NCBI GenBank assembly: GCA_045590715.1
Contig: JAZNRO010000024.1
Coordinates: 1 to 43,674 of the forward strand
Direction of reading: 5' to 3'
DNA from: Eubacteriales bacterium
GTDB taxonomy: Bacteria > Bacillota > Clostridia > Oscillospirales > SIG627
Length of the DNA stretch: 43,674 nucleotides
In this document: piece by piece, positions 10,671-33,100 of the stretch
Numbering within the stretch: the stretch's first letter is position 1
Layout: each line of letters starts with the position of its first letter
Position numbers and translations under genes: made by a program
The notes under the pieces: generated by a model
Told to the model about the DNA's origin: nothing
Database searches by the model: none
Seen by the model: only the letters and a program-made list of their open reading frames with translations

Positions 10671-10680
10671 AGAGGATAAT

Positions 10681-14444: not shown

Positions 14445-14472
14445 AAATAAAACAAATAAAAGGAGGTAAAAA

Positions 14473-14931: not shown

Positions 14932-14949
14932 AAGAAAGGATGAAAAAAT

Positions 14950-15789: not shown

Positions 15790-15819
15790 TTTTTTTCAAT
15801 AAGGAAGGGAGATGCCGAC

Positions 15820-16203: not shown

Positions 16204-16212
16204 GGAGGCGTT

Positions 16213-17928
16213 ATGGCAAGAGATTTTACACTGGATATTACCCGTTTTCTGGGAATCGATAATTCTTCCGAGCATCCCGAAAGTCTTTCGGACGGGGTAA
16301 GTCCCGATATGGTGAATCTGCAGGTGACTCCGGATTACCATTTGAAGCGTAGAGACGGCTTTTATTCCGTTTCCACAAAAACGAAACCGATTCGCGGAAT
16401 CTATTACGTTGTGATGGGGGAAGAAAATCGGTATCTTGCTGTGGCGGGGGACACGCTGTATCATTCCGCTCAAGGCTTTTTGGCTCTTACCCCCGTGGAA
16501 GGGGTAGTTCCGGGAACGGGAAACGTTACGTTTTTCCATTTTTACTCAAAGGTCTATCTTTTGACCGGAGATGGAATTTTGGAATATGACGGAGAAAACC
16601 TCCGGGTTCCCCAGCCCTATATTCCTACCCTGATGATCTCGACCAATGCAGATGGAAGCGGTGTGGTTTACGAAGAAGTAAATCTTCTGACCAGAAAAGT
16701 AAAACAGCTTTTTTCCGGAGATGATCGGTCTTGCCGTTTTGTTCCCATTACCACTGATATCAAAAAGGTGGATTATGTGAAGGTGGACGGTGTGGAAATG
16801 GAGCCGAATACTTACATCTGGGATGATGGAGATCTGGTTTTCATTCTTGGCGCAGCTCCCAGAAAAGGCGTTGATAATATTGAGATCCAATATGAGCTGG
16901 AAGGGGAGGATCTGTCCCCCGTAATTTTAAAAAGCCGATTTGCTACCGCTTTCGGCGGTGCCAGCGATACCAGAGCTTTTCTTTACGGAAATGCAGAAAA
17001 TCCTGCTGTTCGGTATCATAGCGGTATTGTGGACGGAAAACCGGAGTTCACCTATTTCCCTGAAACCGCGGTTTCTCTGGTTGGTAACGGAGACCCTATT
17101 ACCTCTATCCTTTGTCATTATGACAGACAACTGATCTTTACTACTTCTGCGGCATATTATTCTTATTTGGAGTATATGACCGGTACAGATGGAAAACTGG
17201 TGACGGCTTTTCCGGTATTTCCGTTGAATGATGAAAGAGGTAACTGCCCTTCGGGACAGGCAGTTTTAATCGAAAATACGCCCTACACCTTAACGGAAAA
17301 CGGTTTGTTTCAATGGATTTCCACAAACATACGGGACGAACGAAATGCAAAATCGATTTCTGAACCCATCGATCGGTCTTTGCGAAACGAAAAAACCGAT
17401 GAGGCAGTTCTTTTCAATCGCAAAGATACGCAGGAATTGTACGTTTGCATCGGCAGTCACTGCTATGTTTATAATTACCGTTTGAAACTGTTTTACTATT
17501 ATGATCTGAACGGCTTTCAGCCCCGGGGATTTGTGCAAGGGGAAAAGGATCTGTTTTTCTTTGCGGGAAATTCCATTTTCAAAATGGCCGGAAATACCGA
17601 TGAAGCGTGGCCCATTTTTACCCGCTGGCGGTCCCGCTTTTTTGATTTTTCCAAAGCCGGTTTGCAGAAGAAACTCTTTGGTATGACACTGTATTTGAAA
17701 GCGGAAGAAGGGGAAGATTTTCGGATCGGGATCCGGGAGGATCACGAAGAAATGTCGGCCAAGAAAATTCTTTCCGTTTTGCCCGCCAAAGACAGTGCGA
17801 AAAAAAGGGTTTTTATGAAAAAGCGGCGTTTTCGTCTTTTGGAAGTGGAGATCGAAACAGACGGTAGGAAGCCATTCTCCCTTTTGGGTCTTTCTCTGAA
17901 GGGAAGGATCACAGATCGGGAAGATTAA
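16213..17928 (+). CDS. Hypothetical beta-rich protein; positional analogue of a podovirus tail hub/nozzle (P22 gp10-like position)
   Basis: 571 aa with an AAGGAGG RBS. Repeated short hydrophobic/aromatic-Gly strands (LYHSAQG, VYLLTGDG, LIFTTSAAYY, LYVCIGSHCYVY, LFFFAGNSIF) suggest a beta-propeller or beta-sandwich. I recognised no family. Confidence 0.35.
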   Translation: MARDFTLDITRFLGIDNSSEHPESLSDGVSPDMVNLQVTPDYHLKRRDGFYSVSTKTKPIRGIYYVVMGEENRYLAVAGDTLYHSAQGFLALTPVEGVVPGTGNVTFFHFYSKVYLLTGDGILEYDGENLRVPQPYIPTLMISTNADGSGVVYEEVNLLTRKVKQLFSGDDRSCRFVPITTDIKKVDYVKVDGVEMEPNTYIWDDGDLVFILGAAPRKGVDNIEIQYELEGEDLSPVILKSRFATAFGGASDTRAFLYGNAENPAVRYHSGIVDGKPEFTYFPETAVSLVGNGDPITSILCHYDRQLIFTTSAAYYSYLEYMTGTDGKLVTAFPVFPLNDERGNCPSGQAVLIENTPYTLTENGLFQWISTNIRDERNAKSISEPIDRSLRNEKTDEAVLFNRKDTQELYVCIGSHCYVYNYRLKLFYYYDLNGFQPRGFVQGEKDLFFFAGNSIFKMAGNTDEAWPIFTRWRSRFFDFSKAGLQKKLFGMTLYLKAEEGEDFRIGIREDHEEMSAKKILSVLPAKDSAKKRVFMKKRRFRLLEVEIETDGRKPFSLLGLSLKGRITDRED

Positions 17929-17944
17929 AGAAAAGGAGTGTATT

Positions 17945-18781
17945 ATGGCACAATCAGAAAAAGTAAAAGAACTGCTGCGCCGCCTGGAAGAAGGAACGGG
18001 CGAGATTTATGCCCGTTATGAAAGCCTGATCCGGGCCAGCGATGCAGGGTATGACGGAAAGATTGCAGAGCTGGAAAACGATTACCAGAGAGCGGCCGGG
18101 CAGGTTTCGGCCCAAGCAAAAATCGATCGCAAGAATACTTTGGAGAAGATGGCGGACGCCGGGTATTTAAACTCCGGTGAGACCGTGCAGGCAACCATTG
18201 CGGCAAATGCCAATCGCGCCGCTGCGCTATCCGCTCTTTCTGTACAGAAAGCCAAGGATAAGAAGGCTTATTTGCAGGAAAAGGATAAGGCCAGAGCAAG
18301 CCTTTCTCTCCAGGGAGAAAAAGAGGTTACAAATTTGAAAAAAGAAGTGACCGATGCGGTGCGAGAGCAGGAAAATCTGGATCGTGAGTTCGAGGCCCAG
18401 GAGAGACAGAGAGCTTACGAGCAGGCTCTCAAGGAAGAAAATCTGAAGCTGGAAAAGGAGCTTTCTGCAGCCAGGATCGCACAGATGGCGGCGCAGACCC
18501 GTCAGGCAGAGCAGGAAACGGCTTTGGCGGCGGCTGCCCAGGTTCAGAAAGAGGCAGAAAGCAAGAAAAATAAAGGTATTCAGCCGAAAAAGACACCTTA
18601 TGAATACGTGGATGATATTATCGAGCAGAACACCACGTATAATAAGAAAAAGAAGTATAAGGTGATCGACCGAAAGGCCATCTTGCTTGCGATTTCCGCC
18701 ATTGTAAAAGATACCAAGATCTCTTACGATTACCGATATGAAATGTATTTGTACGGAAAGAGTCTGGGATATGTGACTTAA
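17945..18781 (+). CDS. Hypothetical coiled-coil protein; positional analogue of a portal plug/needle (P22 gp26-like position)
   Basis: 278 aa. There is a long Ala/Glu/Lys/Gln-rich heptad-like region (residues about 20-200), then a small globular C-terminal domain. RBS is AAAGGAG. Confidence 0.3.
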   Translation: MAQSEKVKELLRRLEEGTGEIYARYESLIRASDAGYDGKIAELENDYQRAAGQVSAQAKIDRKNTLEKMADAGYLNSGETVQATIAANANRAAALSALSVQKAKDKKAYLQEKDKARASLSLQGEKEVTNLKKEVTDAVREQENLDREFEAQERQRAYEQALKEENLKLEKELSAARIAQMAAQTRQAEQETALAAAAQVQKEAESKKNKGIQPKKTPYEYVDDIIEQNTTYNKKKKYKVIDRKAILLAISAIVKDTKISYDYRYEMYLYGKSLGYVT

Positions 18782-19389: not shown

Positions 19390-20409
19390 ATGGAAAAAGT
19401 ATTGGTAGGGCTTTCCGGCGGGGTAGATAGCGCCGCCACAGCTCTGGTCCTGAAAAAAATGGGATACCGGGTTTATGGCGTTTGCTTTTTGTTTTGCCCC
19501 GGCTCTGATGCCGAAGGGGCCAGAAGAATTGCAGAAAAGCTGGATATCCCTTTCCACGTGGTAAGAAGGCAGCGCCGTTTTGAAAATCAGGTGATTACCC
19601 CTTTCGTTCAAACTTATTCGGAAGGGCGCACGCCCAATCCTTGCGTGGAATGTAACCGAAAAATGAAATTTAGGTGCCTTTTGGAAGAGGCTGACCGGCT
19701 TGGAATTGAAAAGGTAGCCACCGGCCATTATGCTGCCATCCGAAAAGGGGAAAACGGCAGAATGATCTTGTCCCGGGGAAAAGACAAGGGGAAAGATCAG
19801 AGCTATTTCTTGTGGAAACTGACGCAAAAGCAGTTGTCCCGTATTTTGTTTCCTTTGGCGGATGCGGAGAAAAGCCAGATTCGGGAAGAGGCGAAAAAGC
19901 TTGTTTCCAAAGAGAAAAAAGAGAGTATGGAGATCTGCTTTGTTTCCGACGGAGATACCCAGTCCTTTGTAGCGAAGCGGGTACAGAATTTGCATCCCGG
20001 GGATTTTGTGGATCAAAGCGGCCGGGTTTTAGGCCGGCACAAAGGAATTTATCGCTATACCATCGGGCAGAGAAGAGGTCTCGGTATTGCTATGGGAGAG
20101 AGATGGTTTGTTACCGGAATTTTGCCGGAAGAGGGAAAAGTAGTTTTAGGACCGGAACGGGAACTTTATACCGACAGGCTTTTTGTGAAAGATCTTCGCT
20201 TTGTTTCCTGTGCCAAAAAGGACCTTCCCAAAGAGGGGATTTTGTTCCAGGGACGGAATCGGGGAACACCCATTCCTTGTAAGATCTGCTTTGAAAACGG
20301 GGGCGTTACCGTACTGTTTTCAGAGCCCGTCAGACGCTTTGCGCCGGGTCAATCGGCTTGTTTTTACCGGGGCGAGGACCTACTTTTCGGGGGAGAAATC
20401 GCTCTCTGA
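19390..20409 (+). CDS. mnmA: tRNA 2-thiouridine(34) synthase
   Basis: PP-loop VGLSGGVDSA, NPCVECN, ATGHYA, KDQSYFL. Confidence 0.9.
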   Translation: MEKVLVGLSGGVDSAATALVLKKMGYRVYGVCFLFCPGSDAEGARRIAEKLDIPFHVVRRQRRFENQVITPFVQTYSEGRTPNPCVECNRKMKFRCLLEEADRLGIEKVATGHYAAIRKGENGRMILSRGKDKGKDQSYFLWKLTQKQLSRILFPLADAEKSQIREEAKKLVSKEKKESMEICFVSDGDTQSFVAKRVQNLHPGDFVDQSGRVLGRHKGIYRYTIGQRRGLGIAMGERWFVTGILPEEGKVVLGPERELYTDRLFVKDLRFVSCAKKDLPKEGILFQGRNRGTPIPCKICFENGGVTVLFSEPVRRFAPGQSACFYRGEDLLFGGEIAL

Positions 20410-20515: not shown

Positions 20516-20800
20516 ACTTGAAAAAATACTGAAAAAAACATCAAAATATAAATTATAAACAAAATGTTAGTAAAAAAATAGTTATCAAAAATATAACATT
20601 GTTTTCTTCTGATCTCTCAAAACCATAGTAAAATCAAGGAAAAAATAATATTTATAAAGTGTAAATATATTTTTTCGTTAAAATTTGTGCACTTTTGAAA
20701 AGCGCATAATTCATGCAACTGTGTCAAAAACGGCAAAAAAAGCCTTTTTTCGCCCTTCAAAAAGGCCCAAAACCGTTGATATTCTGCGCTTTTTGGTTTC

Positions 20801-20829
20801 TTGACAAAGGGGGGGCATTATGTTAGAAT
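20801..20829 (+). promoter_or_regulatory. Near-consensus sigma-A promoter of the 12-kb ABC locus, with a G7 tract in the spacer
   Basis: TTGACA (20801-20806), 17-nt spacer containing GGGGGGG (20809-20815), then TGt-TAGAAT (20821-20829). The AGGAGG RBS and ATG 20866 follow. Confidence 0.65.
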
Positions 20830-20865
20830 TATGCTACATACACATGACTATAGGAGGAACTTTGT

Positions 20866-23800
20866 ATGATGAAGAAATTTCTGTCAAAATCGCTTGTACT
20901 TTTGCTTGCTTTTTTGATGGTATTTTCCTGCTTCGGCACCGCGGTTTTTGCAACCGATGACGTTGCCCTTGCCGAGGAAAATGCTGAAGAAGAAAAGAAC
21001 AACAGCAAATTACAGGAGATTGAGGAGCTTTTAAACTCCAACGACTATGCCGAATATCGCCTTCTGTATCAGGGCGCGAAAAACGGTGAAGACGATATCG
21101 TAATTTCCGGAAAGGATTTTGATCCGGAAAAGACCACCGCTACCGTTTTCAAGGACAAGTACCTTGGCAGCGAGAGTGAGGTCGTTATGATTGGCGATAC
21201 CGGTGACGTTACCTGGAATTTCGAGGTGAAGAAGACCGGTAACTATCATATCCAGATCACTTACGCTCCCATCGTTTCTTATGACGGAGATCAAGACGGC
21301 AAAGCTGATTTTGTCAGCAATTCCGCCACCATTAAGCGCGCGCTTTTGATCGACGGATCTTATCCTTTTAAGCAGTCCCGTTATATTGAATTGAACCGCG
21401 TATGGAAGGATACTATGGGCGGCGAAGGTTCTAATGACAGAGGATTCATTTTGGATAACGACGGAAACGAGATCAAACCCAACAAGGCTGAAAATCCCGT
21501 TTGGCGTACCATTATGGCTTCCGACTCTACCGGCTATATCGTGGATCCCTTCCTTTATTATGTAGAAGAAGGTGTTCATACCATTTCTCTTGCCGAAGTG
21601 CAGGAAGTTTGCGCGATTAAAGAAATTCGCATTTTCTACGATGATTCTTCCATCACTTACGAAGAATATCTGAAGGAAAACGATAAGAAGGCAGATAAAG
21701 CTGCCGGCGCAGAAATCGAAGTGATCGAAGCAGAAATTCCCAGTTTTACTTCCTCCAACATTATATATCCCATTTACGACCGCTCTTCTGCGGCTACCCA
21801 GCCTCAGAGCGCATACAATATTTACTTGAACGCGATTGGCGGCGAAAAATGGCAGACTGCCGGCCAGTGGATCTCCTGGGACTTTGAAGTTCCGGAAGAT
21901 GGCTACTACACCATCAGCCCCCGCTTCCTTCAGTCTTTTGCAGAGGGTATGTACGTATCCCGCGAACTGAAGATCGACGGCAAAACTCCCTTTGATGAAG
22001 CAAAGACCCTCCGCTTTAAATACAGTGACGAATGGCAGCTTCTCCCTCTGACTGACGGTGTGATCGATGAAAAGACCGGAAAAGAGAGAGCACTGAAGTT
22101 CTATTTGACCAAGGGAACTCACGAAATGGAAATGTGGGTTGTACTGGGTGAAATGGCAGACATTCTCAATACCGTTGAAAAAGCACTTTCCCACGTAAAC
22201 GAATGCTACCTGCAGATTCTGATGCTGACCGGTTCTGAACCTGATGAATACAGAGATTATCAGTTCAGCCGTCTAATGCCCGAAGTACTGAAGGGCATGG
22301 CAGAAGAGTCCAAGGTTCTCTATGAAGTTTCCGCTCAGCTGGAAGCCATCAACGGAACCAAAGGTTCTGACTCTGTAACCCTTGACAACGTAGCACTTCT
22401 TCTGGAAAGAATGAGCGGCGACGAAGATCTGATCGCTCCCAACTTTACCGAACTGAAAGACTACATCGGTAACCTGGGTACCTGGATCATGACCGCTCGT
22501 AACCAGCCTCTGGAATTTGACTACATCCTGGTTTCTCCCGCGGAAGACATGAAAGAAAAGGATGCTTCCGATTACTTTGATGATAAAGGCTTTGATGCCG
22601 ACGCTTCCTTCTGGGATGCTCTTTCTTACGAATTTGAACAGTTCATCATGAGCTGGATCAGCGACTACTCCAGCTACGGTGTGCGCACCCAGGAAGGCTC
22701 TGAAAACTACGCTTCCGTTGAAGTTTGGACCACCTCCGGTCGTGACCAGTCTACGATCATGAGATCTCTGATCAGTGATACCTTCACTTCTCAGAAGAAC
22801 ATTGCAGTAGACTTAAAACTGGTAGCAGCAGGTTCTCTGCTTCCCGCTACTCTTTCCGGCTCCGGCCCTGACGTGAATATGACCCTGGGCTCCGGCACGG
22901 TTATCAACTACGCGATCCGTTCCGCTGTTCTTCCCATCAATCCCGAGGGATACGTTGATGAAGAAGACGATGATGAAGAAACCCGCGAATTTAATGCAAA
23001 ATGCCGCGAGATCTTCTCTGATTACGAGCAGGTTGTTTCCTGGTTCGATGAAGCAGCTACCATTCCTCTGGAACTTTACGGTGTTGCTTACGCCCTCCCC
23101 GAAACCGAAAGCTTCTCAATGCTCTTCTACCGCAGTGACATTCTCCTGCAGCTGGGTCTTGATATCCCCGAAACCTGGGACGACGTTTATAACATGCTTC
23201 CCACCCTTCAGACCAATAACCTGGACTTCGGTTACCACGAATCCCTGGCAGGTCTTCTGATCATGCTGTATCAGCGCGGCCAGCAGCTTTACAGCAAGCC
23301 CTTGGAAGGCGATAAAGACGGTCTGACCGGCGCAATGAGTATCAACCTTGATTCCAACGAAGCCCTTGAAACTTTCAAGGAAATGTGTGAACTTTACACC
23401 ATGTACGGTTTCCCCTATTCTTACAGCTTTGTAAACCGTTTCCGTACCGGTGAAATGCCCATTGGTGTACAGGGTTACACCACCTACTCTCAGCTGACCA
23501 TCTTCGCTCCCGAACTTCGCGGTCTTTGGGGCTTTACCGTTCTTCCCGGTACTGTTCGTACCGATGAAAACGGCAATACCTTCGTCGATCACACTGCCGA
23601 TACCACCGTAACCGGTATCGCAATGATGAGAGACTGCAAAGAAATCGCAGCCGCTTGGGAATTTATGAAGTGGTGGGTTTCCACAGAAACTCAGTCCACC
23701 TACGGTCAGGAATATTACGCACTGCTCGGTGCTTCCGGTCAGTACGCTACTGCCAACATTGAAGCCCTCTATTCTATGAGCTGGACAGCAGACGAAAGAA

Positions 23801-24039
23801 AAGAACTGCACAACCAGTTTGATTGGCTTCAGGCTACTCCCGAGATGCCCGGTGGTTATATCGTTGCTCGTTACGTTGAATTTGCATTCCTTGCCGCTTA
23901 CAACGATGACAAGGATCCGGTAGAATCCATGCTGGAGTATATCGATGCGATCAACTCCGAGCTTACCAGAAAGCGCGGCGAGTTTGACCTGCCCACTCTG
24001 GAAAACTACGAAGACTACATGGCACAGCAAAAAGCTTAA
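20866..24039 (+). CDS. Giant extracellular solute-binding protein: signal peptide, two CBM-like beta-sandwich modules, helical linker, family-1-type sugar SBP domain
   Basis: 1057 aa. There are two internally similar units (GDVTWNFEVKKTGNYHIQITY...LLIDG..PF...GVHTISL and GQWISWDFEVPEDGYYTISPRF...LKIDGKTPF...GTHEMEMWV) of CBM6/35-like pattern. The C-terminal about 440 aa has SBP blocks (VEVWTTSG, SGSGPDV, YALPETESFSMLFYRSDIL..LGLDIPETWDDV, VLPG). Confidence 0.7.
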   Translation: MMKKFLSKSLVLLLAFLMVFSCFGTAVFATDDVALAEENAEEEKNNSKLQEIEELLNSNDYAEYRLLYQGAKNGEDDIVISGKDFDPEKTTATVFKDKYLGSESEVVMIGDTGDVTWNFEVKKTGNYHIQITYAPIVSYDGDQDGKADFVSNSATIKRALLIDGSYPFKQSRYIELNRVWKDTMGGEGSNDRGFILDNDGNEIKPNKAENPVWRTIMASDSTGYIVDPFLYYVEEGVHTISLAEVQEVCAIKEIRIFYDDSSITYEEYLKENDKKADKAAGAEIEVIEAEIPSFTSSNIIYPIYDRSSAATQPQSAYNIYLNAIGGEKWQTAGQWISWDFEVPEDGYYTISPRFLQSFAEGMYVSRELKIDGKTPFDEAKTLRFKYSDEWQLLPLTDGVIDEKTGKERALKFYLTKGTHEMEMWVVLGEMADILNTVEKALSHVNECYLQILMLTGSEPDEYRDYQFSRLMPEVLKGMAEESKVLYEVSAQLEAINGTKGSDSVTLDNVALLLERMSGDEDLIAPNFTELKDYIGNLGTWIMTARNQPLEFDYILVSPAEDMKEKDASDYFDDKGFDADASFWDALSYEFEQFIMSWISDYSSYGVRTQEGSENYASVEVWTTSGRDQSTIMRSLISDTFTSQKNIAVDLKLVAAGSLLPATLSGSGPDVNMTLGSGTVINYAIRSAVLPINPEGYVDEEDDDEETREFNAKCREIFSDYEQVVSWFDEAATIPLELYGVAYALPETESFSMLFYRSDILLQLGLDIPETWDDVYNMLPTLQTNNLDFGYHESLAGLLIMLYQRGQQLYSKPLEGDKDGLTGAMSINLDSNEALETFKEMCELYTMYGFPYSYSFVNRFRTGEMPIGVQGYTTYSQLTIFAPELRGLWGFTVLPGTVRTDENGNTFVDHTADTTVTGIAMMRDCKEIAAAWEFMKWWVSTETQSTYGQEYYALLGASGQYATANIEALYSMSWTADERKELHNQFDWLQATPEMPGGYIVARYVEFAFLAAYNDDKDPVESMLEYIDAINSELTRKRGEFDLPTLENYEDYMAQQKA

Positions 24040-24065
24040 TCTAAAAGTAAGGAGAGGATTTTCTC

Positions 24066-25016
24066 ATGTCTCAAAAGACAACAACAGCAAAAGCGCCTGT
24101 CTCAAGAAAAGACATGACCAAGTGGCAGTGGACACTGAAGGAAATGAAGAATAACAAGACCGGTTATTTCCTTTTGGCTCCGTTCTATATTATTTTCTTC
24201 ATTTTTACCGTATTTCCTGTTATTTTGTCGATCTTTTTCAGTTTGACAGACTTTAACATGCTTGAAACACCAAATATGGTTTGGTTTGATAACTATATCC
24301 GTCTGTTCCTGGATGACGATATCTTCCTGTTATCCGTAAAGAATACCCTGGTATTTGCAGCTATCACTGGTCCCGGCTCGTACCTTCTGTCCCTTATCAT
24401 GGCATGGTTTATCAACGAGCTGCCCCCCAAGATCCGTGCGATCATGACACTGATCTTCTATGCGCCCAGTATTTCCGGTAACGTTTACATGGTATGGACC
24501 TACATTTTCTCTGCAGACTCCCACGGTTTCTTGAACGGTACTTTGATGGATCTGGGTCTGATTACAACGCCTATCGCGTTTCTGAAAGACCCCACCTACA
24601 TTATAGCAATCGTTATTATCGTAGCCCTCTTGACTTCTCTGGGTACCTCCTTCCTTACCTTTATTGCAGGTTTCCAGGTTGTTGACCGCTCTCTCTATGA
24701 GGCGGCTGCTGTGGACGGCGTTAAAAACCGTTGGCAGGAGCTTTGGTTTATTACCATGCCGTATATGAAACCGCAGATGATGTTCGGTGCGGTAATGGCA
24801 ATTACCAACTCCTTCGGTTTTGGTTCGGTTATTACCGGTCTGGTAGGCTTCCCGTCTCCCGACTACTGTGCACACACCATCATGCACCATCTGGACGACT
24901 ACGGCGGATCCCCTTTTGAAATGGGTTATGCATCTACCATTGCAGTGGTACTGTTCTTTATGATGATCGGTTCCAATATGCTGGTTCGTAAACTTCTCGG
25001 AAAGGTTGGTAAGTGA
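24066..25016 (+). CDS. Carbohydrate ABC transporter permease (MalF/UgpA-type)
   Basis: 316 aa with 6 TM segments. EAA-loop is YEAAAVDGVKNRWQELWFITMPYMKP. Confidence 0.9.
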   Translation: MSQKTTTAKAPVSRKDMTKWQWTLKEMKNNKTGYFLLAPFYIIFFIFTVFPVILSIFFSLTDFNMLETPNMVWFDNYIRLFLDDDIFLLSVKNTLVFAAITGPGSYLLSLIMAWFINELPPKIRAIMTLIFYAPSISGNVYMVWTYIFSADSHGFLNGTLMDLGLITTPIAFLKDPTYIIAIVIIVALLTSLGTSFLTFIAGFQVVDRSLYEAAAVDGVKNRWQELWFITMPYMKPQMMFGAVMAITNSFGFGSVITGLVGFPSPDYCAHTIMHHLDDYGGSPFEMGYASTIAVVLFFMMIGSNMLVRKLLGKVGK

Positions 25017-25017
25017 T

Positions 25018-25890
25018 ATGGCAAAATTAAGAATTCGCAAATCCAACCACGCTATGAACCGCTCTTTGGGCGGCGATATCGGTATCAACGCTGTCCTTCT
25101 TATCATGGGCGCGTTCATGTTCCTTCCTATGCTTTATACTGTCATGCAGTCCTTAAAGCCTCTGGACGAACTCTGGATGTATCCCCCTCGTTTCTTCGTT
25201 AGAAACCCCACCTTGGTTAACTTTAAGACCCTGTTTAACCTGATGAGCACCTCTTGGGTGCCCTTCTCCCGTTACATTTTTAACACCGCGTTCGTATCCA
25301 TCTTGGGTACCTTCGGTAACGTTATTCTGTCTTCTATGGCAGCTTATTCTCTGGCAAAAATGAAGTTCCCCGGAAAAGCCTTCCTTTTCCAGGTTGTTGT
25401 TTACTCCCTGATGTTCCACACCACAGTAACTTCTATCACCAACTTCTGGACCATGAGTAAACTGGGCCTGGTTGATACCTATTGGGCAAGAATCATTCCT
25501 GCCTGCGCAACCAGTATGGGTCTTTACCTGATGAAGCAGTTTATGGAAACCTCCGTTCCGGATTCCGTTCTGGAATCTGCAAGACTTGACGGTTCCACTG
25601 AGCTGCGCGTGTTCTGGCAGATCGCGATGCCTATGGTTAAGCCCGCTTGGCTGACCCTGATCGTATTCTGCTTTAAGGATCTGTGGAATGCAGGTTCTTC
25701 CATTTACATTTATTCCGAGCAGTACAAGAGTTTCAACTACGCCATTGGTCAGATCGTTACCGGTGGTGTATCCCGTCAGGGCGCCGGCGCCGCATCTACC
25801 GTTATTATGATGATGGTACCGATCCTGGTATTCGTTGTTACCCAGAGTAACATTATTGAAACCATGTCTTCTTCCGGTATGAAAGATTAA
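25018..25890 (+). CDS. Carbohydrate ABC transporter permease (MalG/UgpE-type)
   Basis: EAA-loop is ESARLDGSTELRVFWQIAMPMVKP. I preferred ATG 25018, but the in-frame TTG at 25006 is also possible. Confidence 0.9.
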   Translation: MAKLRIRKSNHAMNRSLGGDIGINAVLLIMGAFMFLPMLYTVMQSLKPLDELWMYPPRFFVRNPTLVNFKTLFNLMSTSWVPFSRYIFNTAFVSILGTFGNVILSSMAAYSLAKMKFPGKAFLFQVVVYSLMFHTTVTSITNFWTMSKLGLVDTYWARIIPACATSMGLYLMKQFMETSVPDSVLESARLDGSTELRVFWQIAMPMVKPAWLTLIVFCFKDLWNAGSSIYIYSEQYKSFNYAIGQIVTGGVSRQGAGAASTVIMMMVPILVFVVTQSNIIETMSSSGMKD

Positions 25891-25908
25891 GAAAAGGAGA
25901 AAAGCAAG

Positions 25909-28074
25909 ATGAAAAAAGCATTAAGAGTATTTCTCTTGATTATTTGTATTGCGGCTCTCCTTGCACCTTGTGCAAGTGCACTGGTGCCGTATACGACCTA
26001 CACTTACGACATTGACGGAAACTATGTGGAATCTCCTCACGCCTACGTGCCTGACCGCATCGTAGACTCTGCGGATATGGGACTGAAAACCCCTCTTTCC
26101 TCTCCCACGGACCTTGTTTCCGATGAAAACGGCAACCTGTTCTTGGCTGACCCCAATAACAACCGTTTTGTTATTCTCAATACGGACTACACCGTAAACA
26201 CTACCGTTTCCCGTTTCTTGAACGGCCAGGGTGTTCCGGATAGTTTTGAGAAACCCCGTGGACTTTTTGTAAAGGACGAAGAGATCTTCGTTTGTGATAC
26301 GGAGAATAACCGTATCGTAGTATTCGATAAGACCTGCGATGAAAACGGCAAGATCCTCTCCGTTGATTTTGACAGAGTGATCGGTAAGCCCGAAAGCACT
26401 GCTTTCCCCGAAGGCGCTACCTATAAGCCGATCGCCTGTGCCGTTGATACCGCCGGAAGAATCTACGTTGTTTCTTCCACCACCAACCTTGGTATCATCT
26501 CTCTCAATGCCGGCGGCGAATTCTTAGGATTCCTCGGCGCGCAGAAAACTGCGCCCAGCGCATTCCAGATCTTCTGGAGAATGTTCCAGACGAAAGAGCA
26601 GAGAGAAGCGCTCCAGTCCCTGGTTCCTACCGAGTACAACAACATTGATATTGACGAATCCGGCTTTATTTACGCTACCATCTCCTCTCTGGACGAAAAG
26701 AAAATGGCAGACGCCATCTCCTCCAAGTCCACTTCCGGAGACTATGCGCCTGTAAAGAAACTGAATGCAGAAGGTACCGACGTTATGCTCCGTACCGGTT
26801 TCTGGCCTCCCTCCGGTGAGGTTACCGTTGTTCAGTATCAGTCCGTTGCAGCGGATGCAAACCTTGACGTATCTATGATCATCGACGTTGCCCTTGGCCA
26901 GGCAGGTACCTGGACTCTGGCAGACGGTGACCGTCAGAGATTCTACACCTACGATTCTCAGGGCAACCTGCTCTTCATCTTCGGAGACAACGGTCCTCAG
27001 CTTGGTAATAACGTTGGCGTATCTTCCATCTGCTACCAGCAGGATAAATTCCTGGTACTGGACCGCACCAACAACTCCTTTACCATTTATAAGAGAACTG
27101 CTTACGGCGAAAGCCTGATGGCTGCCATCCAGAACGTAGCAGACCGTAATTACGATAAGTCCGCTGTATACTGGCAGGAAGTTCTTTTAAGAAACTCCAA
27201 CTTCGACGAAGCTTACATTGGTATTGCAGATAGCTACTACCGTGCAGGCGACTACGAAAAGGCTCAGGAATATTACGCTGCCGCTTACGATGCAGAAGGT
27301 TATTCCAAGAGCTACTCCAGAATCCGTAAAGGCTGGATCGAAAAGTATATTCTTCTGATTCCCATTACCGTAGCGGTAATTGCCGTTGCCATTACCAAGT
27401 TCTTCGGTTACGCTGCGAAAGTAAACGTTGCCGGACAGGTAATGAAGGATAAGAGAACCTTTAAAGAGGCTGCTCTTTACGGCTGCCACGTGATCTTCCA
27501 TCCCTTTGACGGCTTCTGGGATCTGAAACACGAAAAACGAGGCAATTTCAAAGCAGGTATCTTCTTTGTAGTGTTGACCATTGCTGCTTATATCTACAAC
27601 GGTATGGGACAGTCCTTCTGGTACGATCCCTACAATAAAGGTATCAGCATCGTAGCACAGCTCACCGGCGTTTTGGTTCCCCTTGCCCTTTGGGTAATTG
27701 CCAACTGGTGTCTGACTACTCTGTTTGAAGGCGAAGGAAGCCTGAAGGACATTTGCCTGGCAACTTGCTACTGTCTGCTTCCCCTGCCTATGATGATGAT
27801 TCCCGCTACCATTCTGACTCACGTTTTGACTCTGGATGAAAGCGCAATCGTTACTCTTTTGATTTCTATCGGCTACGTATGGACCGGTATGCTGTTGTTC
27901 TTTGCCGTTATGGTAACCCACGACTACAGCTTCTCTAAAAACATTCTGACCGTTGTAGGAACTCTTGCCGGTATGGTAATTATCATGTTCCTGGCGCTTC
28001 TGTTCTCCGGTCTGTTTGGTAAGATCATTTCGTTTGTTGTAAATATTTACACCGAGCTATCGCTCAGAGTTTAG
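25909..28074 (+). CDS. Membrane protein: signal peptide, extracellular NHL-repeat beta-propeller, TPR-like segment, C-terminal polytopic Yip1-like domain
   Basis: 721 aa. NHL-type repeats are present (PTDLVSDENGNLFLADPNNNRFVILN; PRGLFVKDEEIFVCDTENNRIVVFD; PIACAVDTAGRIYVVSS; QRFYTYDSQGNLLFIFG; FLVLDRTNNSFTIYK). A TPR-like segment (AYIGIADSYYRAGDYEKAQEYY) follows, then about 6 TM helices. Confidence 0.65.
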   Translation: MKKALRVFLLIICIAALLAPCASALVPYTTYTYDIDGNYVESPHAYVPDRIVDSADMGLKTPLSSPTDLVSDENGNLFLADPNNNRFVILNTDYTVNTTVSRFLNGQGVPDSFEKPRGLFVKDEEIFVCDTENNRIVVFDKTCDENGKILSVDFDRVIGKPESTAFPEGATYKPIACAVDTAGRIYVVSSTTNLGIISLNAGGEFLGFLGAQKTAPSAFQIFWRMFQTKEQREALQSLVPTEYNNIDIDESGFIYATISSLDEKKMADAISSKSTSGDYAPVKKLNAEGTDVMLRTGFWPPSGEVTVVQYQSVAADANLDVSMIIDVALGQAGTWTLADGDRQRFYTYDSQGNLLFIFGDNGPQLGNNVGVSSICYQQDKFLVLDRTNNSFTIYKRTAYGESLMAAIQNVADRNYDKSAVYWQEVLLRNSNFDEAYIGIADSYYRAGDYEKAQEYYAAAYDAEGYSKSYSRIRKGWIEKYILLIPITVAVIAVAITKFFGYAAKVNVAGQVMKDKRTFKEAALYGCHVIFHPFDGFWDLKHEKRGNFKAGIFFVVLTIAAYIYNGMGQSFWYDPYNKGISIVAQLTGVLVPLALWVIANWCLTTLFEGEGSLKDICLATCYCLLPLPMMMIPATILTHVLTLDESAIVTLLISIGYVWTGMLLFFAVMVTHDYSFSKNILTVVGTLAGMVIIMFLALLFSGLFGKIISFVVNIYTELSLRV

Positions 28075-28091
28075 GAAAGGAGGTACCTTGA

Positions 28092-30941
28092 ATGAAAAAG
28101 ATTTTGTCTCTTGCATTAACGTTTGTTCTTGTTTTCAGTATGGTTCTTCCTCTCCTTGCCACTGCCGGCCAGGCAGAGGGATTGGGTGATAAAAAACTTT
28201 ATGACACTCTGAAAAACACCAATTACACCACCACCATTTATGATTCTCCTGAAGCAAAGCTTGAGACCATGACCAAAGTGGTGGAAAACGAGGGCTACGC
28301 TCTTTACATCCAGGAATTTACCGCAGAGGTTTGTGTTGTAGATAAGGTTACCGGCCAGATGCTCTTCACCAACCCCTACGACGTAGCAGACGGTTCTGCT
28401 TCTCCTGCTATTAAGTACGAGCTCCTCAGCCAGATCAAGCTTTCCTATCACGGAACCTCCGAGGCAAGCGGAAATCTGAACAGCTTTTCCGACGCTGCAT
28501 ATCCCGAGCAGATCAATATTAAACTGATCCGCGGCGGTGTACGCGTTGAGTACACCATGGGTGAAGCAATTAAGAAAAGACTGGTTCCTTATCAGATCGA
28601 AAAGAGCCGTTTTGAAAACGACATTCTGGCTCCCTTCTTTGAAGCTACCACCGATTCTGATTTAAGCTATGAAGAGTATGCGACTCTGAAGAAAAGCGAA
28701 GATCTTGCCGATCAGTCCAAGGCTTCTTCCGCAGAATCCTTCGAATTCGGCCGTTTCCTTTCCTTCTATACTCTTTACGACCTTTCTGATCCTTCCCTGA
28801 CTGCCCGTCAGCAGTCTACCATTCTTTCTACTTATCCTATTACTGAGCGCTACGCCATCTACATTGTAGAAGAAGAAATTCAGGCGCAGGAGCTGAACGC
28901 TCTGGAAAATTATATTCGTAAGAATACCGAATTCTCTCTGGACGATATGCTTGCCGCTCATGAAGAAGTAGAGTACGTGCTGGAAGAAGGCTCCGCTCCT
29001 ATCTTTAAGATGGCGCTGGAGTACACTCTCACGAAAGACGGCTTCCAGGTTCGTCTTCCTGCACGAGGCATCACCTTTGATGCTTCCACTTACACCCTGG
29101 ATACCATTCAGATCCTGCCTTATCTGGGCGCCGGCAGACATGCAGATGCAAATGCCATCCGCAGAGATACCGGTTACAACTTCATTCCTGACGGAAGCGG
29201 TGCTACCATTTCCTTCGATAAGAATGACCTTTATACCCAGGTATCCGGCACTCTTTACGGCAGTGACTTCGGTTTCTATAACAGCACCTCTGCTACCACT
29301 GCCAGCTATCAGACCTGGCGTGTTCCCGTATACGGAACCGTTATGACCTCTGATATGACCATCAAGGAAACCGTTCTTGATGCAGAAGGTAAGCCTGTTT
29401 TGGATGAAGATGGAAAGCCTGTGAAGCAGGTTGTTGAAAATCGCAGTGTAAAACAGGGTTACGTAGCCTTTATGACCGAAGGTGAAAGCCTTACCCGTAT
29501 TGACGCTGTCAGCGGAAACGGTGTTCACGGATACCACTCCGTATCCACCACCTTCTTTGCCCGTCAGACCGACTCCTATCCTCTGGACGGTATTACCGTT
29601 ACCGGTGGTGTGGCAGTTTACACCAAGCCCATCGACAGAAAGTACGTTGGCAACTACACCATTCAGTACAGACTTCTGTACGGTGACAATGCTGATTACG
29701 TAGGTATGGCAAATGCATACCGCAAGTTCCTTTTGGAAGAGGGCATTCTGGAAAAGATCGAAACCGGTGATGACAAAGACATCAACCTGTATATGGACCT
29801 TCTGGGTGTCATTGATATTATTAAGACCGTTCTTGGCGTTCCGGTTGATGCTACCGCAGATCTTACCACCTTTGAAAATGCAAAGGTTATTCTGGACGAA
29901 CTGAAGGAAGCCGGCGTAAACGACCAGGTAATCCGTTATCTGGGCTGGGTGAATGGCGGTCTTGCTTCCACCGTTCCTTCCAAACTGAAAGTGGTAAAGG
30001 AACTGGGCGGTGAAAAGAAACTGAAAGAACTGATCAGCCACGTTCAGAAAAACGGCGATCAGATCTATCTGGATCTTGATTTTGCCTACATCAAAGCCGT
30101 TGGTATGTTTGATGGCTATGATGAAGAAAAAGATGCTGCCAAGACCATCGACGGCAAAGCAGCATACTATCAGACCTACAACCCCATTGTACAGGCGTAC
30201 AATACACAGGTAGCCTTTGTTCTCTCTGCCAAGACCATCAAGACTTATTACGATAGAATCGTAGATAAGTACACCGGTTACTTCGGAGAAGGTGCAAAGA
30301 CCATCTCTATGGGAACGCTGGGTCACGCGCTGAACTCCAGCCAGGATGAAGACTTCCCCTTGAACCGTGAAGATGCAAAAGATTACACTGCATCCACAAT
30401 GGGTCAGATCAAAGAAGACGTTGAAAGCATCCTGATTGAAAAAGGAAACTATTACACCTGGAAATATGCAGACACCGTTCTGGATATTCCACTGGATAGC
30501 TCCAACCGTATTACCACCACGGCAGAGGTTCCTTTCCTTGGTATCCTGCTCCATGGTTATATGAATTACACCGGTGAAGCCATCAATATGGCAGGCGACT
30601 ATGAATATACTCTCCTGAAAACCATTGAAAACGGTGCAAATCCCTACTTTGTCCTTGCTTACGACAATATTGCAGAGCTGAAGACCAACGGTTACAGCGA
30701 ATATTACGCAGTAGAATATGGCGTATGGAAGGAAAGTATCGTAGAAGAATACAAGAAGCTCAATGAGGTTCTCGGACCTCTCCAGGATCAGCTGATTACC
30801 GGGCATGAGATCCTGCAGGAGAGAATTGTAAAGGTAGTCTACGAAAACGGTACTGAAATTTACCTCAACTATAACAACTTCGCAAAGAACGTAGAAGGCG
30901 TTGAAATCCCGGCAATGGGCTTCTACGTTGCAGAAGCGTAA
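28092..30941 (+). CDS. Secreted 949-aa protein of unknown family; C-terminal half looks like a (beta/alpha)8 glycoside-hydrolase-like barrel (tentative)
   Basis: AAGGAGG RBS and a signal peptide (...LLATAGQA|EG). The strand-loop pattern YLGWVNGG, IYLDLDF, SMGTLGH and PFLGILLHGYMNY is reminiscent of a TIM-barrel. From memory, similar proteins may be annotated only as a DUF family; I did not verify this. Confidence 0.5.
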   Translation: MKKILSLALTFVLVFSMVLPLLATAGQAEGLGDKKLYDTLKNTNYTTTIYDSPEAKLETMTKVVENEGYALYIQEFTAEVCVVDKVTGQMLFTNPYDVADGSASPAIKYELLSQIKLSYHGTSEASGNLNSFSDAAYPEQINIKLIRGGVRVEYTMGEAIKKRLVPYQIEKSRFENDILAPFFEATTDSDLSYEEYATLKKSEDLADQSKASSAESFEFGRFLSFYTLYDLSDPSLTARQQSTILSTYPITERYAIYIVEEEIQAQELNALENYIRKNTEFSLDDMLAAHEEVEYVLEEGSAPIFKMALEYTLTKDGFQVRLPARGITFDASTYTLDTIQILPYLGAGRHADANAIRRDTGYNFIPDGSGATISFDKNDLYTQVSGTLYGSDFGFYNSTSATTASYQTWRVPVYGTVMTSDMTIKETVLDAEGKPVLDEDGKPVKQVVENRSVKQGYVAFMTEGESLTRIDAVSGNGVHGYHSVSTTFFARQTDSYPLDGITVTGGVAVYTKPIDRKYVGNYTIQYRLLYGDNADYVGMANAYRKFLLEEGILEKIETGDDKDINLYMDLLGVIDIIKTVLGVPVDATADLTTFENAKVILDELKEAGVNDQVIRYLGWVNGGLASTVPSKLKVVKELGGEKKLKELISHVQKNGDQIYLDLDFAYIKAVGMFDGYDEEKDAAKTIDGKAAYYQTYNPIVQAYNTQVAFVLSAKTIKTYYDRIVDKYTGYFGEGAKTISMGTLGHALNSSQDEDFPLNREDAKDYTASTMGQIKEDVESILIEKGNYYTWKYADTVLDIPLDSSNRITTTAEVPFLGILLHGYMNYTGEAINMAGDYEYTLLKTIENGANPYFVLAYDNIAELKTNGYSEYYAVEYGVWKESIVEEYKKLNEVLGPLQDQLITGHEILQERIVKVVYENGTEIYLNYNNFAKNVEGVEIPAMGFYVAEA

Positions 30942-30959
30942 GGAAAGGAGAGGTGAAAA

Positions 30960-31976
30960 ATGAATCAAGCAGTCACAAAAAAGGTTGAACCTATGACAAA
31001 GCCTGTGAAAAAGAAAAAATCCAAGGCCAAATCGCTGGATAAAGCGAAGGCCCGTTCCGGTTGGTTCTTTGTAGCACCTTTTGTTTTGATCTTCTTCCTT
31101 GTTTACATTCCCGTTATTATCGACTCCATTACCTACAGTTTCAACACCATCTACCCCTTATCCGGCGGCGGATTCGTTCTTGACTACGTAGGATGGGAAA
31201 ACTACTACAACGCACTCTTTGTAGATGCAAACTTTGTTACCACCTTGACCGGCGGTATCAAGCAGCTGGTATTGGAAGTTCCTGCCATCGTTGTATTCTC
31301 TCTGTTTATGGCAGTTCTTCTGAACCAGAAAATGGTCGGCCGTACTTTGTTCCGTGCCATCTTCTTTATCCCCGTTATTCTGTCTACCGGTCTTATCGAT
31401 GATATCGATATGAGCAACGCCTTTGCTGACTATGCAAGCGGTGGCGGTGCGGCAGGCGGAGCAGAAGCCGGCGCAACAGCGGGAGAAGGCGTTCAGCAGA
31501 ACTCCAACTCTCTGATCACTGCGGTTGACTTGCAGGGCCTTTTCTCTACCATGAAGGTAGGTACCGGCCTTGTGGATTACGTAGTAAATATTGTAAACGA
31601 TATTTATGACCTGGTAAACCGTTCCGGTGTACAGATGCTCATCTTCCTGGCAGGTCTGCAGTCTATCTCTCCTGCTATTTATGAGTCCTGTACCATCGAC
31701 GGCGCAACCACTTGGGAGACCTTCTGGAAGATCACCTTCCCCATGATCAGCCCCATGATCCTGGTAAACTCCATCTATACGGTAATCGACTCCTTTACAT
31801 CTTCCTCCAACCGAGTGATGAACTACGTGGGTCACGTATATGATAGCGTTACCACCTCCGGCGGCGACGTACTTGCTACTGCAATGTACTGGATCTACTT
31901 CTCCATTGTAATTCTGATTATCGCGGCAGTTGCGGCATTCATGTCCGCCTACGTCTTCTATCAGAGAAGAGACTAA
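30960..31976 (+). CDS. Carbohydrate ABC transporter permease (MalF-type), second pair
   Basis: 338 aa. EAA-loop is YESCTIDGATTWETFWKITFPMISP. There is a Gly/Ala-rich periplasmic insert (GGGAAGGAEAGATAGEG). Confidence 0.88.
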   Translation: MNQAVTKKVEPMTKPVKKKKSKAKSLDKAKARSGWFFVAPFVLIFFLVYIPVIIDSITYSFNTIYPLSGGGFVLDYVGWENYYNALFVDANFVTTLTGGIKQLVLEVPAIVVFSLFMAVLLNQKMVGRTLFRAIFFIPVILSTGLIDDIDMSNAFADYASGGGAAGGAEAGATAGEGVQQNSNSLITAVDLQGLFSTMKVGTGLVDYVVNIVNDIYDLVNRSGVQMLIFLAGLQSISPAIYESCTIDGATTWETFWKITFPMISPMILVNSIYTVIDSFTSSSNRVMNYVGHVYDSVTTSGGDVLATAMYWIYFSIVILIIAAVAAFMSAYVFYQRRD

Positions 31977-31993
31977 GAAAGGAGGACAAATAG

Positions 31994-33013
31994 ATGAATG
32001 CAGATATCAAAACCAAAAAGTTTGGTAAGAAAAAGGAATTCGACGTAGAATTCCAGGATCGTACTCCCTTCTGGGAAAGAGTGAAGGCAAAATTCTTCAC
32101 CCTGACCTTCGCGAAAAATCTTGTTTGGGCAATCTTCCGTTATGTCCTTCTGATCGGTATTGCATACGTAATCCTTTATCCCTTCATTGCAAAGATCGCC
32201 GGTTCTTTTATGAGCCGTGAAGACTTTGTGGATGTTACGGTAAAACTGATCCCTAAGTATCCTACCCTGGATACTTATAAGGCGATCATTACTGAAAACC
32301 GTTACTTTGAAGCACTGTGGAACACCACCGTTATCTCTCTGCTTTGTGCAGTGGTACAGATGGTAACCACCATGCTCATCGGTTACGGTCTTGCAAAGTT
32401 CAAGTTTAAAGGTAATTCCTTCCTGTTCTACTGTGTAATCTTTACCATGGTAGTTCCTCACCAGGCGCTTCGTCTGGCTCTGTTCCAGAAGTTCCGTTAC
32501 TTTGATATGTACGGAATCATCAAGCTCCTGACCGGTAATACCTTGAACCTGATCAACACCTACTGGCCTTTGGCTCTCCTTTCCTTCGGCGGTCTTGCCT
32601 TTAAGAACGGACTTTACATCTTCTTGATGCGTCAGTTCTTCCGCGGCGTACCCGATGAATTGGAAGAAGCGGCCTATGTGGACGGTTCCGGCGTATTTAA
32701 GACCTTCGTTCGTATCATCGTGCCCCTTTCCGTGCCGATGCTGATCACCGTGTTCATTTTCGCCTTCTCCTGGCAGTGGACCGATGACTTCTATACGCAG
32801 ATGTTCTTTACCAGAACCTCTACCTATCTGATGCCTAATATCGTTACGGTTCCTCCTTCTCTGGACACCACCGGTTTTGAAGCTGCCATGGTTTACTCCT
32901 CGGCAATTATCAATACCGCCGCACTGATGATTATCGCTCCGCTGGTAATTATCTACTGCTTCTGCCAGAAGTACATTGTACAGGGTATCGAACGAAGCGG
33001 TATCGTTGGTTAA
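31994..33013 (+). CDS. Carbohydrate ABC transporter permease (MalG-type), second pair
   Basis: 339 aa. EAA-loop is EEAAYVDGSGVFKTFVRIIVPLSVP. Confidence 0.88.
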   Translation: MNADIKTKKFGKKKEFDVEFQDRTPFWERVKAKFFTLTFAKNLVWAIFRYVLLIGIAYVILYPFIAKIAGSFMSREDFVDVTVKLIPKYPTLDTYKAIITENRYFEALWNTTVISLLCAVVQMVTTMLIGYGLAKFKFKGNSFLFYCVIFTMVVPHQALRLALFQKFRYFDMYGIIKLLTGNTLNLINTYWPLALLSFGGLAFKNGLYIFLMRQFFRGVPDELEEAAYVDGSGVFKTFVRIIVPLSVPMLITVFIFAFSWQWTDDFYTQMFFTRTSTYLMPNIVTVPPSLDTTGFEAAMVYSSAIINTAALMIIAPLVIIYCFCQKYIVQGIERSGIVG

Positions 33014-33020
33014 AAAAACA

Positions 33021-33052
33021 AAAAAGATGTGCCTTATGGCACATCTTTTTTT
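33021..33052 (+). terminator. Rho-independent terminator ending the ABC locus
   Basis: Stem AGATGTGCC / GGCACATCT (33025-33033 and 33038-33046), loop TTAT, then T-run 33047-33052. Confidence 0.75.
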
Positions 33053-33065
33053 GGTCTTACAGAAA

Positions 33066-33100
33066 AAGAAAAAAAGCAGTTCATTCGAACTGCTTTTTTG
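33066..33100 (-). terminator. Terminator for rpsO-pnp (bidirectional hairpin)
   Basis: Stem GCAGTTC / GAACTGC (33076-33082 and 33087-33093), flanked by an A-run and a T-run. Confidence 0.7.

Follow-up and report, generated by a model that had tools for sequence, protein, structure and literature searches.

ATP-binding cassette (ABC) importers of the CUT1 type, such as MalEFGK2 of E. coli or MsmEFGK and AraNPQ-MsmX of Firmicutes, are built from one heterodimer of MalF/MalG-like permeases with EAA coupling motifs and a binding protein of the SBP_bac_1-type fold. Among Firmicutes, CUT1 importers often draw on a shared orphan ATPase, MsmX/MsmK. In Gram-positive polysaccharide utilisation loci (gpPULs), which were defined for Roseburia and Eubacterium, a transporter is co-located with a polysaccharide-degrading enzyme and a transcriptional regulator. 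Here we describe a seven-gene ABC transporter cassette on contig JAZNRO010000024.1 of an Eubacteriales bacterium (assembly GCA_045590715.1), of which positions 1 to 43,674, in the following called the window, were analysed. The genes g1 to g7 (Table 1) encode a very large binding protein (g1), a first permease pair (g2, g3), a membrane protein with NHL, TPR and Yip1 domains (g4), a secreted DUF5696 protein (g5) and a second permease pair (g6, g7). We read their products as the membrane-bound and surface-exposed components of a single CUT1-type (MalFGK2-like) glycan or oligosaccharide importer, arranged as a fixed two-translocator cassette with the component roles proposed below, and we give this reading a probability of about 0.5. 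The cassette departs from the textbook ABC importer by its second translocator, by a glycosidase-fold protein in which the catalytic residues of the family have seemingly been lost and by a propeller-bearing Yip1 protein.

The transporter identity is established by the permeases. All four match BPD_transp_1 above the Pfam cut-off, and NCBIfam assigns g2 and g6 to the UgpA/MalF type and g3 and g7 to the UgpE/MalG/GlcU type, with g2 also matching UgpA/PotB-type models. As in known CUT1 importers, EAA coupling motifs are present, at residue 212 of g2, as an EAA-type motif at residue 190 of the 294-residue g3 open reading frame (ORF) and at residue 225 of g7; g6 carries the variant ESCTIDG. The paralogues are only distantly related (g2 and g6 22% identical, g3 and g7 24%). 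From these models and motifs we see two complete, anciently diverged MalF/MalG-type heterodimers, with the ATPase-coupling motif in every subunit. A long Gly/Ala-rich loop in g6 (about residues 148–215) would lie on the extracytoplasmic side. A first-pass annotation of this DNA had proposed four membrane-domain genes in two MalF/MalG-like pairs next to a single binding protein, with an NHL-Yip1 membrane protein and a 949-residue protein completing the set. Pfam and NCBIfam agree with the pairs, and all seven ORFs are present with the domains that this composition demands. Having two permease heterodimers per cassette instead of one, and two additional obligatory components, NHL-TPR-Yip1 and DUF5696, the locus differs from the known CUT1 systems.

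The binding protein g1 also combines familiar and unusual traits. It matches SBP_bac_1 with 68 bits at residues 629–943 and SBP_bac_8 with 45 bits, but it is 2.5 times as large as a normal CUT1 binding protein. In the AlphaFold2 model (predicted local distance difference test, pLDDT, 84) a signal peptide is followed by two beta-sandwich modules (about residues 75–257 and 285–426), a four-helix bundle (430–545) and a full oligosaccharide-type binding fold (549–1040). The solved folds nearest to this last domain are binders of cycloisomalto-oligosaccharides, sophoro-oligosaccharides, cycloalternan, maltodextrin and acarbose (E about 1e-16; template modelling (TM) scores of 0.7–0.8, normalised by target length). 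To call g1 fused to carbohydrate-binding modules (CBMs), as had been done, is reasonable but not proven. The two modelled sandwiches and the CBM_35 matches in 11 of 40 orthologues (best E 1e-5; CBM_6 in one, Golvesin_C and GH115_C also seen) speak for it, whereas the window protein itself, with 22 bits against a Pfam cut-off of 28, stays below threshold for CBM_35. Unlike CUT1 binding proteins, the orthologues of g1 mostly lack a lipobox; a lipobox-like cysteine was found in only 13 of the 40. The DUF5696 proteins have plain signal peptides, and most of their orthologues are likewise without a lipobox. Since this anchor is mostly missing in both proteins, they are probably retained at the surface via protein contacts.

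The cassette recurs in other genomes. Fetching via DUF5696 gave 84 loci, in which the DUF5696 protein is 33–75% identical to that of the window. As far as the contigs reach, all 84 keep the seven genes, their order and their common strand. The order is found again in two more metagenomic loci, reached via partial-coverage homologues, and in five cultured Bacillota, and each window protein matches its positional counterpart in the cassettes of Butyrivibrio and Paenibacillus cellulosilyticus. The flanks differ among the loci; the gene order of the cassette is constant. The cassette is hereby confirmed as a fixed, tightly conserved unit and not a chance neighbourhood, and the co-conservation whose absence would have refuted the first-pass annotation is seen in 84 + 2 + 5 loci with identical order. 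Carriers are rumen and gut Clostridia, Butyrivibrio and soil Paenibacillaceae, and DUF5696 homologues from uncultured rumen and gut Clostridia are abundant. When one genome per species was scanned, at least 528 stretches turned out to encode a relative, and a search of the full library with the DUF5696 profile gave 6044 clusters at 50% identity with E ≤ 1e-3, 3576 of them with E ≤ 1e-30. At distances at which the permeases still share 55–70% identity, the binding protein and DUF5696 have dropped to 35–45%; the orthologue identities range from 54 to 94% for g2 and from 49 to 86% for g6. The faster divergence of the surface proteins is the pattern expected if they carry the specificity. Literature searches for DUF5696 and for this set of genes returned no paper, in line with the earlier view that none of the non-transporter parts has an established role.

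We also looked for a consistent carbohydrate-active enzyme (CAZyme) or regulator gene downstream of the metagenomic cassettes and rejected this idea, as the 58 neighbours represent 64 Pfam families of which none occurs in more than 4 loci. Upstream, mnmA (19390–20409 in the window) directly precedes the cassette in 25 fetched loci (e.g. L001, L004, L019, L025, L048). These include lineages whose DUF5696 proteins are only 36–40% identical, so that the synteny was held over a long evolutionary distance.

Neither Walker-A nor LSGGQ motifs are found anywhere in the 43.7-kb window. An ATPase hidden in the flanks was considered and rejected: the 10-kb flanks of the 84 loci contain 7 motif-bearing ORFs, at inconsistent positions and with sizes that are not MalK-like. 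In Paenibacillus cellulosilyticus, P. mucilaginosus and Neobacillus kokaensis, the cassette is headed by the gene of an ATPase of 369–372 residues with ABC_tran, OB_MalK and TOBE_2 domains. Because a MalK/MsmX-type gene sits directly upstream in these three Bacilli cassettes, the window clade probably uses an ATPase of this type that is encoded elsewhere in the genome; the location of the ATPase gene outside the operon is a feature of many Firmicute CUT1 loci. The absence of a nucleotide-binding subunit had been noted before, correctly for the window, but given how common shared ATPases are, and with the MalK-type gene at the head of three Bacilli cassettes, it is not the atypical trait it was taken for.

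The cultured relatives place the cassette among genes of glycan use. On plasmid pNP243 of Butyrivibrio fibrisolvens D1 the order is a glycoside hydrolase (GH) gene of family GH43, a 977-residue binding protein, two permeases, an NHL protein, a separate YIP1 protein, DUF5696, two permeases and two conventional binding proteins, and genes for a histidine kinase and a response regulator lie upstream on the opposite strand. The cassette of Cohnella luojiensis lies between GH26, GH113 and GH9 genes on one side and, on the other, a LacI gene accompanied by a conventional binding protein; GH26 and GH113 point to mannans here. Downstream of the Neobacillus cassette are GH2 and GH38 genes. Some Paenibacillus genomes carry two cassette copies. 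Different cassette copies belong to different glycan loci, and the capture of a glycan at the surface followed by import, as proposed in the first-pass annotation, fits relatives that adjoin these hydrolase and regulator genes. Overlaps of 4 nt link the Yip1, DUF5696 and P2a (pair 2) genes of Paenibacillus, which suggests coupled translation. In two Paenibacillus species (L168, L169) the cassette is followed by several genes of luciferase-like (LLM class) flavin oxidoreductases and extra binding-protein genes; such oxidoreductases are unusual neighbours of a sugar importer.

With gpPULs the locus shares the combination of an ABC importer and extracellular glycan-recognition proteins, and the Butyrivibrio and Cohnella relatives do stand in loci with hydrolase and regulator genes. 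Unlike in a gpPUL, however, the window operon and its flanks contain neither a regulator gene nor a classified CAZyme, so that enzyme, transporter and regulator come together only in distant relatives, and the core is a fixed seven-gene transporter module and not a variable set of enzymes.

The membrane protein g4 starts with a signal peptide and an extracellular NHL beta-propeller, followed by TPR repeats, a transmembrane helix at residues 481–499 and a C-terminal multi-pass Yip1 region with five hydrophobic segments in the hydropathy profile. Pfam detects Yip1 with 50.3 bits (cut-off 28.6) at residues 527–696, NHL with 43 bits, and TPR. Sequence matches in the PDB are the NHL propellers of TRIM71, Thin, SOQ1 and PknD and consensus TPR proteins. 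Butyrivibrio and Cohnella encode the NHL part and the Yip1 part in two genes. Literature searches that combined ABC transporters with Yip1 or NHL gave nothing relevant except YknW of Bacillus subtilis, the one studied bacterial Yip1-family protein, which modulates the assembly of the ABC transporter YknXYZ (PMC4887032). As in YknWXYZ, a Yip1-domain membrane protein is encoded together with an ABC transporter. In contrast, YknYZ belongs to the MacB-type exporters and works with a membrane-fusion protein, and YknW has no NHL/TPR ectodomain, whereas the partner in our cassette is a type I importer. One could still think of an export or resistance machine in which the Yip1 protein assembles an ABC exporter of a toxic compound or polymer, since YknW is an ABC efflux accessory, but with four membrane proteins of the type I importer fold with EAA motifs, a solute-binding protein in the cassette, a MalK-type ATPase with OB and TOBE domains in Bacilli, and neither a MacB-type nor a membrane-fusion component in the cassette, we find this extremely improbable.

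The protein g5 is an unambiguous member of DUF5696 (PF18952; 529.5 bits against a gathering cut-off of 25.6, E 1.5e-158) and matches no GH family of Pfam at E ≤ 0.01. Its AlphaFold2 model, computed with 40 homologues (pLDDT 86, predicted TM-score, pTM, 0.80), consists of an N-terminal module of about 300 residues, a GH129/GH101-like beta-sandwich, a (beta/alpha)8 barrel and a C-terminal beta-sandwich. The barrel-like shape that had been supposed for the 949-residue protein is thus seen in the model. Searching the PDB with Foldseek gave ZgGH129 (8rzk, 5opq) at E 1.1e-28 and NagBb (5wzp, 5wzn) at about 2e-22, then GH101 at about 1e-13, followed by GH31 and GH36 down to 1e-10; the TM-scores of g5 against GH129 are 0.64–0.72, normalised by target length. 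With NagBb, an alpha-N-acetylgalactosaminidase, ZgGH129, a 3,6-anhydro-D-galactosidase, and GH101, g5 shares the order of sandwich, barrel and sandwich, and also the motifs GW-x-x-G after beta2, F-D, L/V-x-H and N-G-x-x-P-Y. By sequence, the family profile reaches NagBb at E 9e-4 only (GW-N-GG aligned with DGWAQPG), and hhalign, for which the NagBb gene was taken from gut metagenome contigs, gave 93–97% probability for the window subfamily and 97.8%, nearly over the full length, for the Paenibacillus subfamily. The statement that the locus has no recognisable hydrolase therefore holds for the annotation, but the fold of DUF5696 resembles that of GH129 and GH101. Differences to GH129 are the extra 300-residue module and the location: NagBb is cytosolic (PMC7232152), g5 is secreted.

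The comparison of the barrels gave a further difference. In the hhalign alignments D435 of NagBb (YLDVF), which we take to be the nucleophile, meets glycine or serine-type residues and falls at a gap or at G741 in the strand I-S-M-G-T-L-G, E478, presumably the acid/base, falls at G785, followed by the invariant N786, and H520-D521 stands opposite the invariant H821-G822. Whatever the exact register, residues 736–750 and 778–790 contain no conserved acid in 116 homologues, and none in the Paenibacillus subfamily. Asp 739, present in Butyrivibrio and P. cellulosilyticus, was considered as an ancestral nucleophile and rejected, because it is not kept within the Paenibacillus subfamily. The F-D aspartate D674, the G-D aspartate D836 and H821 are common to g5 and NagBb and look like pocket or structural residues. 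Because no family-wide acid is found at the nucleophile and acid/base positions of GH129, g5 may bind glycans rather than cleave them. It would keep a GH129-like pocket for binding, and hydrolysis by the GH129 mechanism is unlikely. The processing of the polymer by the 949-residue protein, which the first-pass annotation had suggested, thus finds no support in the sequence.

Several DUF5696 proteins are considerably longer than g5. C-terminal extensions of 500–900 residues are present at eight of the loci (L058, L060, L067, L069, L071, L073, L076, L083), for totals of 1450–1870 residues, and library representatives reach 2545 residues. As a clue to anchoring, the long extensions (in proteins of 1250–1870 residues) were set aside, as they gave no Pfam match.

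Taken together, we propose the following mechanism. A MalK/MsmX-type ATPase from elsewhere in the genome would power the system. The CBM-bearing g1 would capture the glycan at the cell surface and feed it to pair 1. The NHL-TPR-Yip1 protein g4 would be a membrane scaffold that holds the otherwise unanchored DUF5696 protein, and perhaps g1 too, beside pair 2, with YknW as a precedent for a Yip1 accessory, and DUF5696 would more likely bind, select or hand over the glycan than cut it via a GH129 mechanism. What g4 and g5 do, and how the pairs share the work, we infer from the domains and their arrangement. As g1 and g5 diverge much faster than the permeases do, the specificity would differ between lineages.

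In a bolder version, which we consider unlikely, DUF5696 would be a catalytically dead, GH129-like protein, held at the membrane by the NHL-TPR-Yip1 scaffold, and would serve as the substrate receptor of pair 2. If it is true, we would have a type I ABC importer whose receptor does not have the fold of a solute-binding protein, and a two-translocator supercomplex common to thousands of Bacillota lineages. A parallel comes from the SLC3 heavy chains (4F2hc, rBAT), which pair with SLC7 light chains; 4F2hc has a glycosidase-fold ectodomain without catalytic residues. DUF5696 can be likened to 4F2hc as an ancillary transporter subunit, by analogy only, since transporter class and lineage are unrelated and the SLC3 heavy chain is GH13-like. 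Understanding the cassette could reveal a new Gram-positive coupling of surface polymer capture to uptake. It would furthermore show what DUF5696 and the Yip1 proteins of bacteria do and sharpen how carbohydrate use is read from gut and rumen metagenomes. The cassette is widespread, and Paenibacillus, Cohnella and Butyrivibrio fibrisolvens D1 are cultured carriers.

A number of points weigh against the importer with a non-cleaving DUF5696 protein, and most of them concern g5. The sequence identity between g5 and GH129 is only about 12%, and near strands beta4 and beta5 the local confidence of the hhalign alignment is low. The assignment of D435 and E478 as the catalytic residues of NagBb is our assumption and reportedly goes back to Sato et al. 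in 2017; in the recovered sequence the residue types D and E are all that was confirmed at positions 435 and 478, and PDB titles of relatives (ZgGH129 D486N; GH101 D764N and E796Q) support a corresponding assignment there. Behind the barrel strands beta2 to beta8 there are indeed conserved polar residues, namely W619, N621, D674, R759, E760, N786, D802, H821, N832 and D836, and the near-invariant E760, D802, D674 and D836 on the C-terminal face of the barrel could form a non-canonical catalytic centre in the window subfamily. Additionally, extra conventional binding-protein genes lie beside the cassette in Butyrivibrio, Cohnella and Neobacillus, and pair 2 may use such an ordinary binding protein encoded elsewhere. 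Finally, the housekeeping flanks of the window clade, with no nearby CAZyme gene, give no clue to the substrate.

Some of these points lead to the alternative that survives best, an ordinary glycan utilisation operon. Here DUF5696 would be an active extracellular alpha-glycosidase, an unclassified relative of GH129, GH101 and GH31 with relocated catalytic residues, which trims the polymer; the pairs would be two conventional importers of its products, one served by g1 and the other by a binding protein encoded elsewhere, and NHL-Yip1 would be only an anchor or chaperone. The Foldseek match is strong, the polar and acidic cluster indeed resembles an active site, and in the N-terminal sandwich D367, D392 and E310 are shared by Clostridia and Paenibacillus members. 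The binding-protein genes adjoining the cassette in Butyrivibrio, Cohnella and Neobacillus also fit, and some Paenibacillus members are labelled "glycoside hydrolase", by automatic annotation only. However, no family-wide acid exists near the ends of beta4 and beta5, where GH129, GH101 and GH13-type enzymes have their nucleophile and acid/base, and the H-D pair of NagBb is an invariant H-G in DUF5696. Only part of the conserved polar residues persists in Butyrivibrio and Paenibacillus, and it is E760 and D802 that are not kept there. An ordinary operon also leaves the fixed gene order and the constant NHL-Yip1 partner unexplained. We regard this glycosidase explanation as a serious possibility, though somewhat improbable.

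Less probable still, and in our view quite doubtful, is a housekeeping role at the cell envelope, in which the cassette recovers or senses a self-made glycan (wall polysaccharide, capsule or a spore-related polymer) and not a dietary one. The window-clade operon does stand alone among rnhA, mnmA, pnp, spoIIE and nrdDG, its promoter is close to consensus, neither a regulator nor a CAZyme gene is nearby, and its permeases are unusually well conserved. The constant mnmA gene in 25 loci would also suit such a role, but this synteny may reflect shared ancestry only. Against it stand the Butyrivibrio, Cohnella and Neobacillus relatives, which lie inside typical plant-glycan loci (GH43, GH26, GH113, GH9 and GH2, with LacI or two-component genes), and the paralogous copies in Paenibacillus, as they are known for nutrient loci.

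Returning to the operon itself, the seven genes are co-directional on the + strand (20866–33013). A single promoter and a single terminator had been said to frame them, and this is borne out by a near-consensus promoter and a hairpin followed by a T-run (Table 1). For the reported intergenic gaps of 12–26 nt the picture is mixed: we find 26, 1, 18, 17, 18 and 17 nt, so that five gaps agree and the one between g2 and g3 does not. This 1-nt spacing also occurs in the orthologues. It follows from a g3 start at the ATG at 25018; the ORF list begins at the TTG at 25006 (294 residues), and the orthologues have 290–291 residues. Likewise, consensus Shine-Dalgarno sites of the GGAGG type precede six of the seven genes, and the site before g3 is weaker.

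Table 1. Features of the seven-gene cassette and its upstream region (window coordinates).
Feature	Position	Strand	Basis
Conserved non-coding element TTTGTGCACTTTTGAAAAGCGCATAATTCA, 30 nt	20684..20713	+	about 90 nt upstream of -35; footprinting
Promoter, sigma-70-type TTGACA-17-TAGAAT, extended -10 TG	20801..20829	+	11/12 consensus positions, top-scoring in region
g1 binding protein, 1057 aa, secreted	20866..24039	+	Pfam SBP_bac_1
g2 MalF/UgpA-like permease, pair 1, 316 aa	24066..25016	+	BPD_transp_1
g3 MalG/UgpE-like permease, pair 1, 290 aa from ATG	25018..25890	+	BPD_transp_1
g4 NHL-TPR-Yip1 membrane protein, 721 aa	25909..28074	+	Pfam NHL, TPR, Yip1
g5 DUF5696 protein, secreted, 949 aa	28092..30941	+	Pfam DUF5696
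g6 MalF-like permease, pair 2, 338 aa	30960..31976	+	BPD_transp_1
g7 MalG-like permease, pair 2, 339 aa	31994..33013	+	BPD_transp_1
Two-way intrinsic terminator hairpin, T-runs on both sides, ends operon	33020..33051	.	14 pairs, loop of 4

Upstream of the promoter, phylogenetic footprinting revealed the element TTTGTGCACTTTTGAAAAGCGCATAATTCA, which is nearly invariant in 15 orthologous upstream regions amid intergenic DNA that varies. The window has a single copy of it, where chance alone would give 0, and its exact core is found once per locus in 13 loci. Also kept in the 15 loci are the -35 hexamer, a TGnTAnnAT -10 region and the leader CTACATACACATGACT-TAGGAGGA. The element TTTGTGCACTTTTGAAAAGCGCATAATTCA may act as the operator of a regulator whose gene lies elsewhere, or as a secondary promoter. 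As previously noted, scans with Pfam and other domain models found no regulator gene in the operon, be it LacI, AraC or two-component; this is true for the genes, but because a conserved 30-nt element lies upstream of the promoter, control in trans is suggested. The element is an imperfect inverted repeat with a loose resemblance to a CodY box. No CcpA cre site was found upstream of g1 (one-mismatch matches in the window: 4 against 2.5 expected), and the idea that the leader contains a riboswitch or another known RNA was dropped, since the whole window is without an Rfam match.

The flanks of the window operon are housekeeping genes, with RNase H (rnhA) and mnmA upstream and the convergent pnp, then spoIIE, nrdG and nrdD, downstream. 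A second hairpin with T-runs (33070–33099) stands back-to-back with that at 33020–33051 and serves pnp; each of the two could stop transcription both ways.

Just upstream of the RNase H gene and mnmA lies a small phage-like structural cluster on the + strand (12882–18781). It encodes a P22-like portal (12882–14444), a major head protein (14950–15789) and a virion structural protein (16213–17928), with further ORFs without assignment at 14473–14931, 15820–16203 and 17945–18781. No terminase, tail or integrase gene was identified alongside it in the window. Between two trigger-factor-like genes, the ORF at 9576–10670 has no Pfam match and only a PHROG match of unknown function. The two neighbours, at 8362–9579 and 10645–11751, carry trigger-factor C-terminal domains, and the former also has an FKBP domain.

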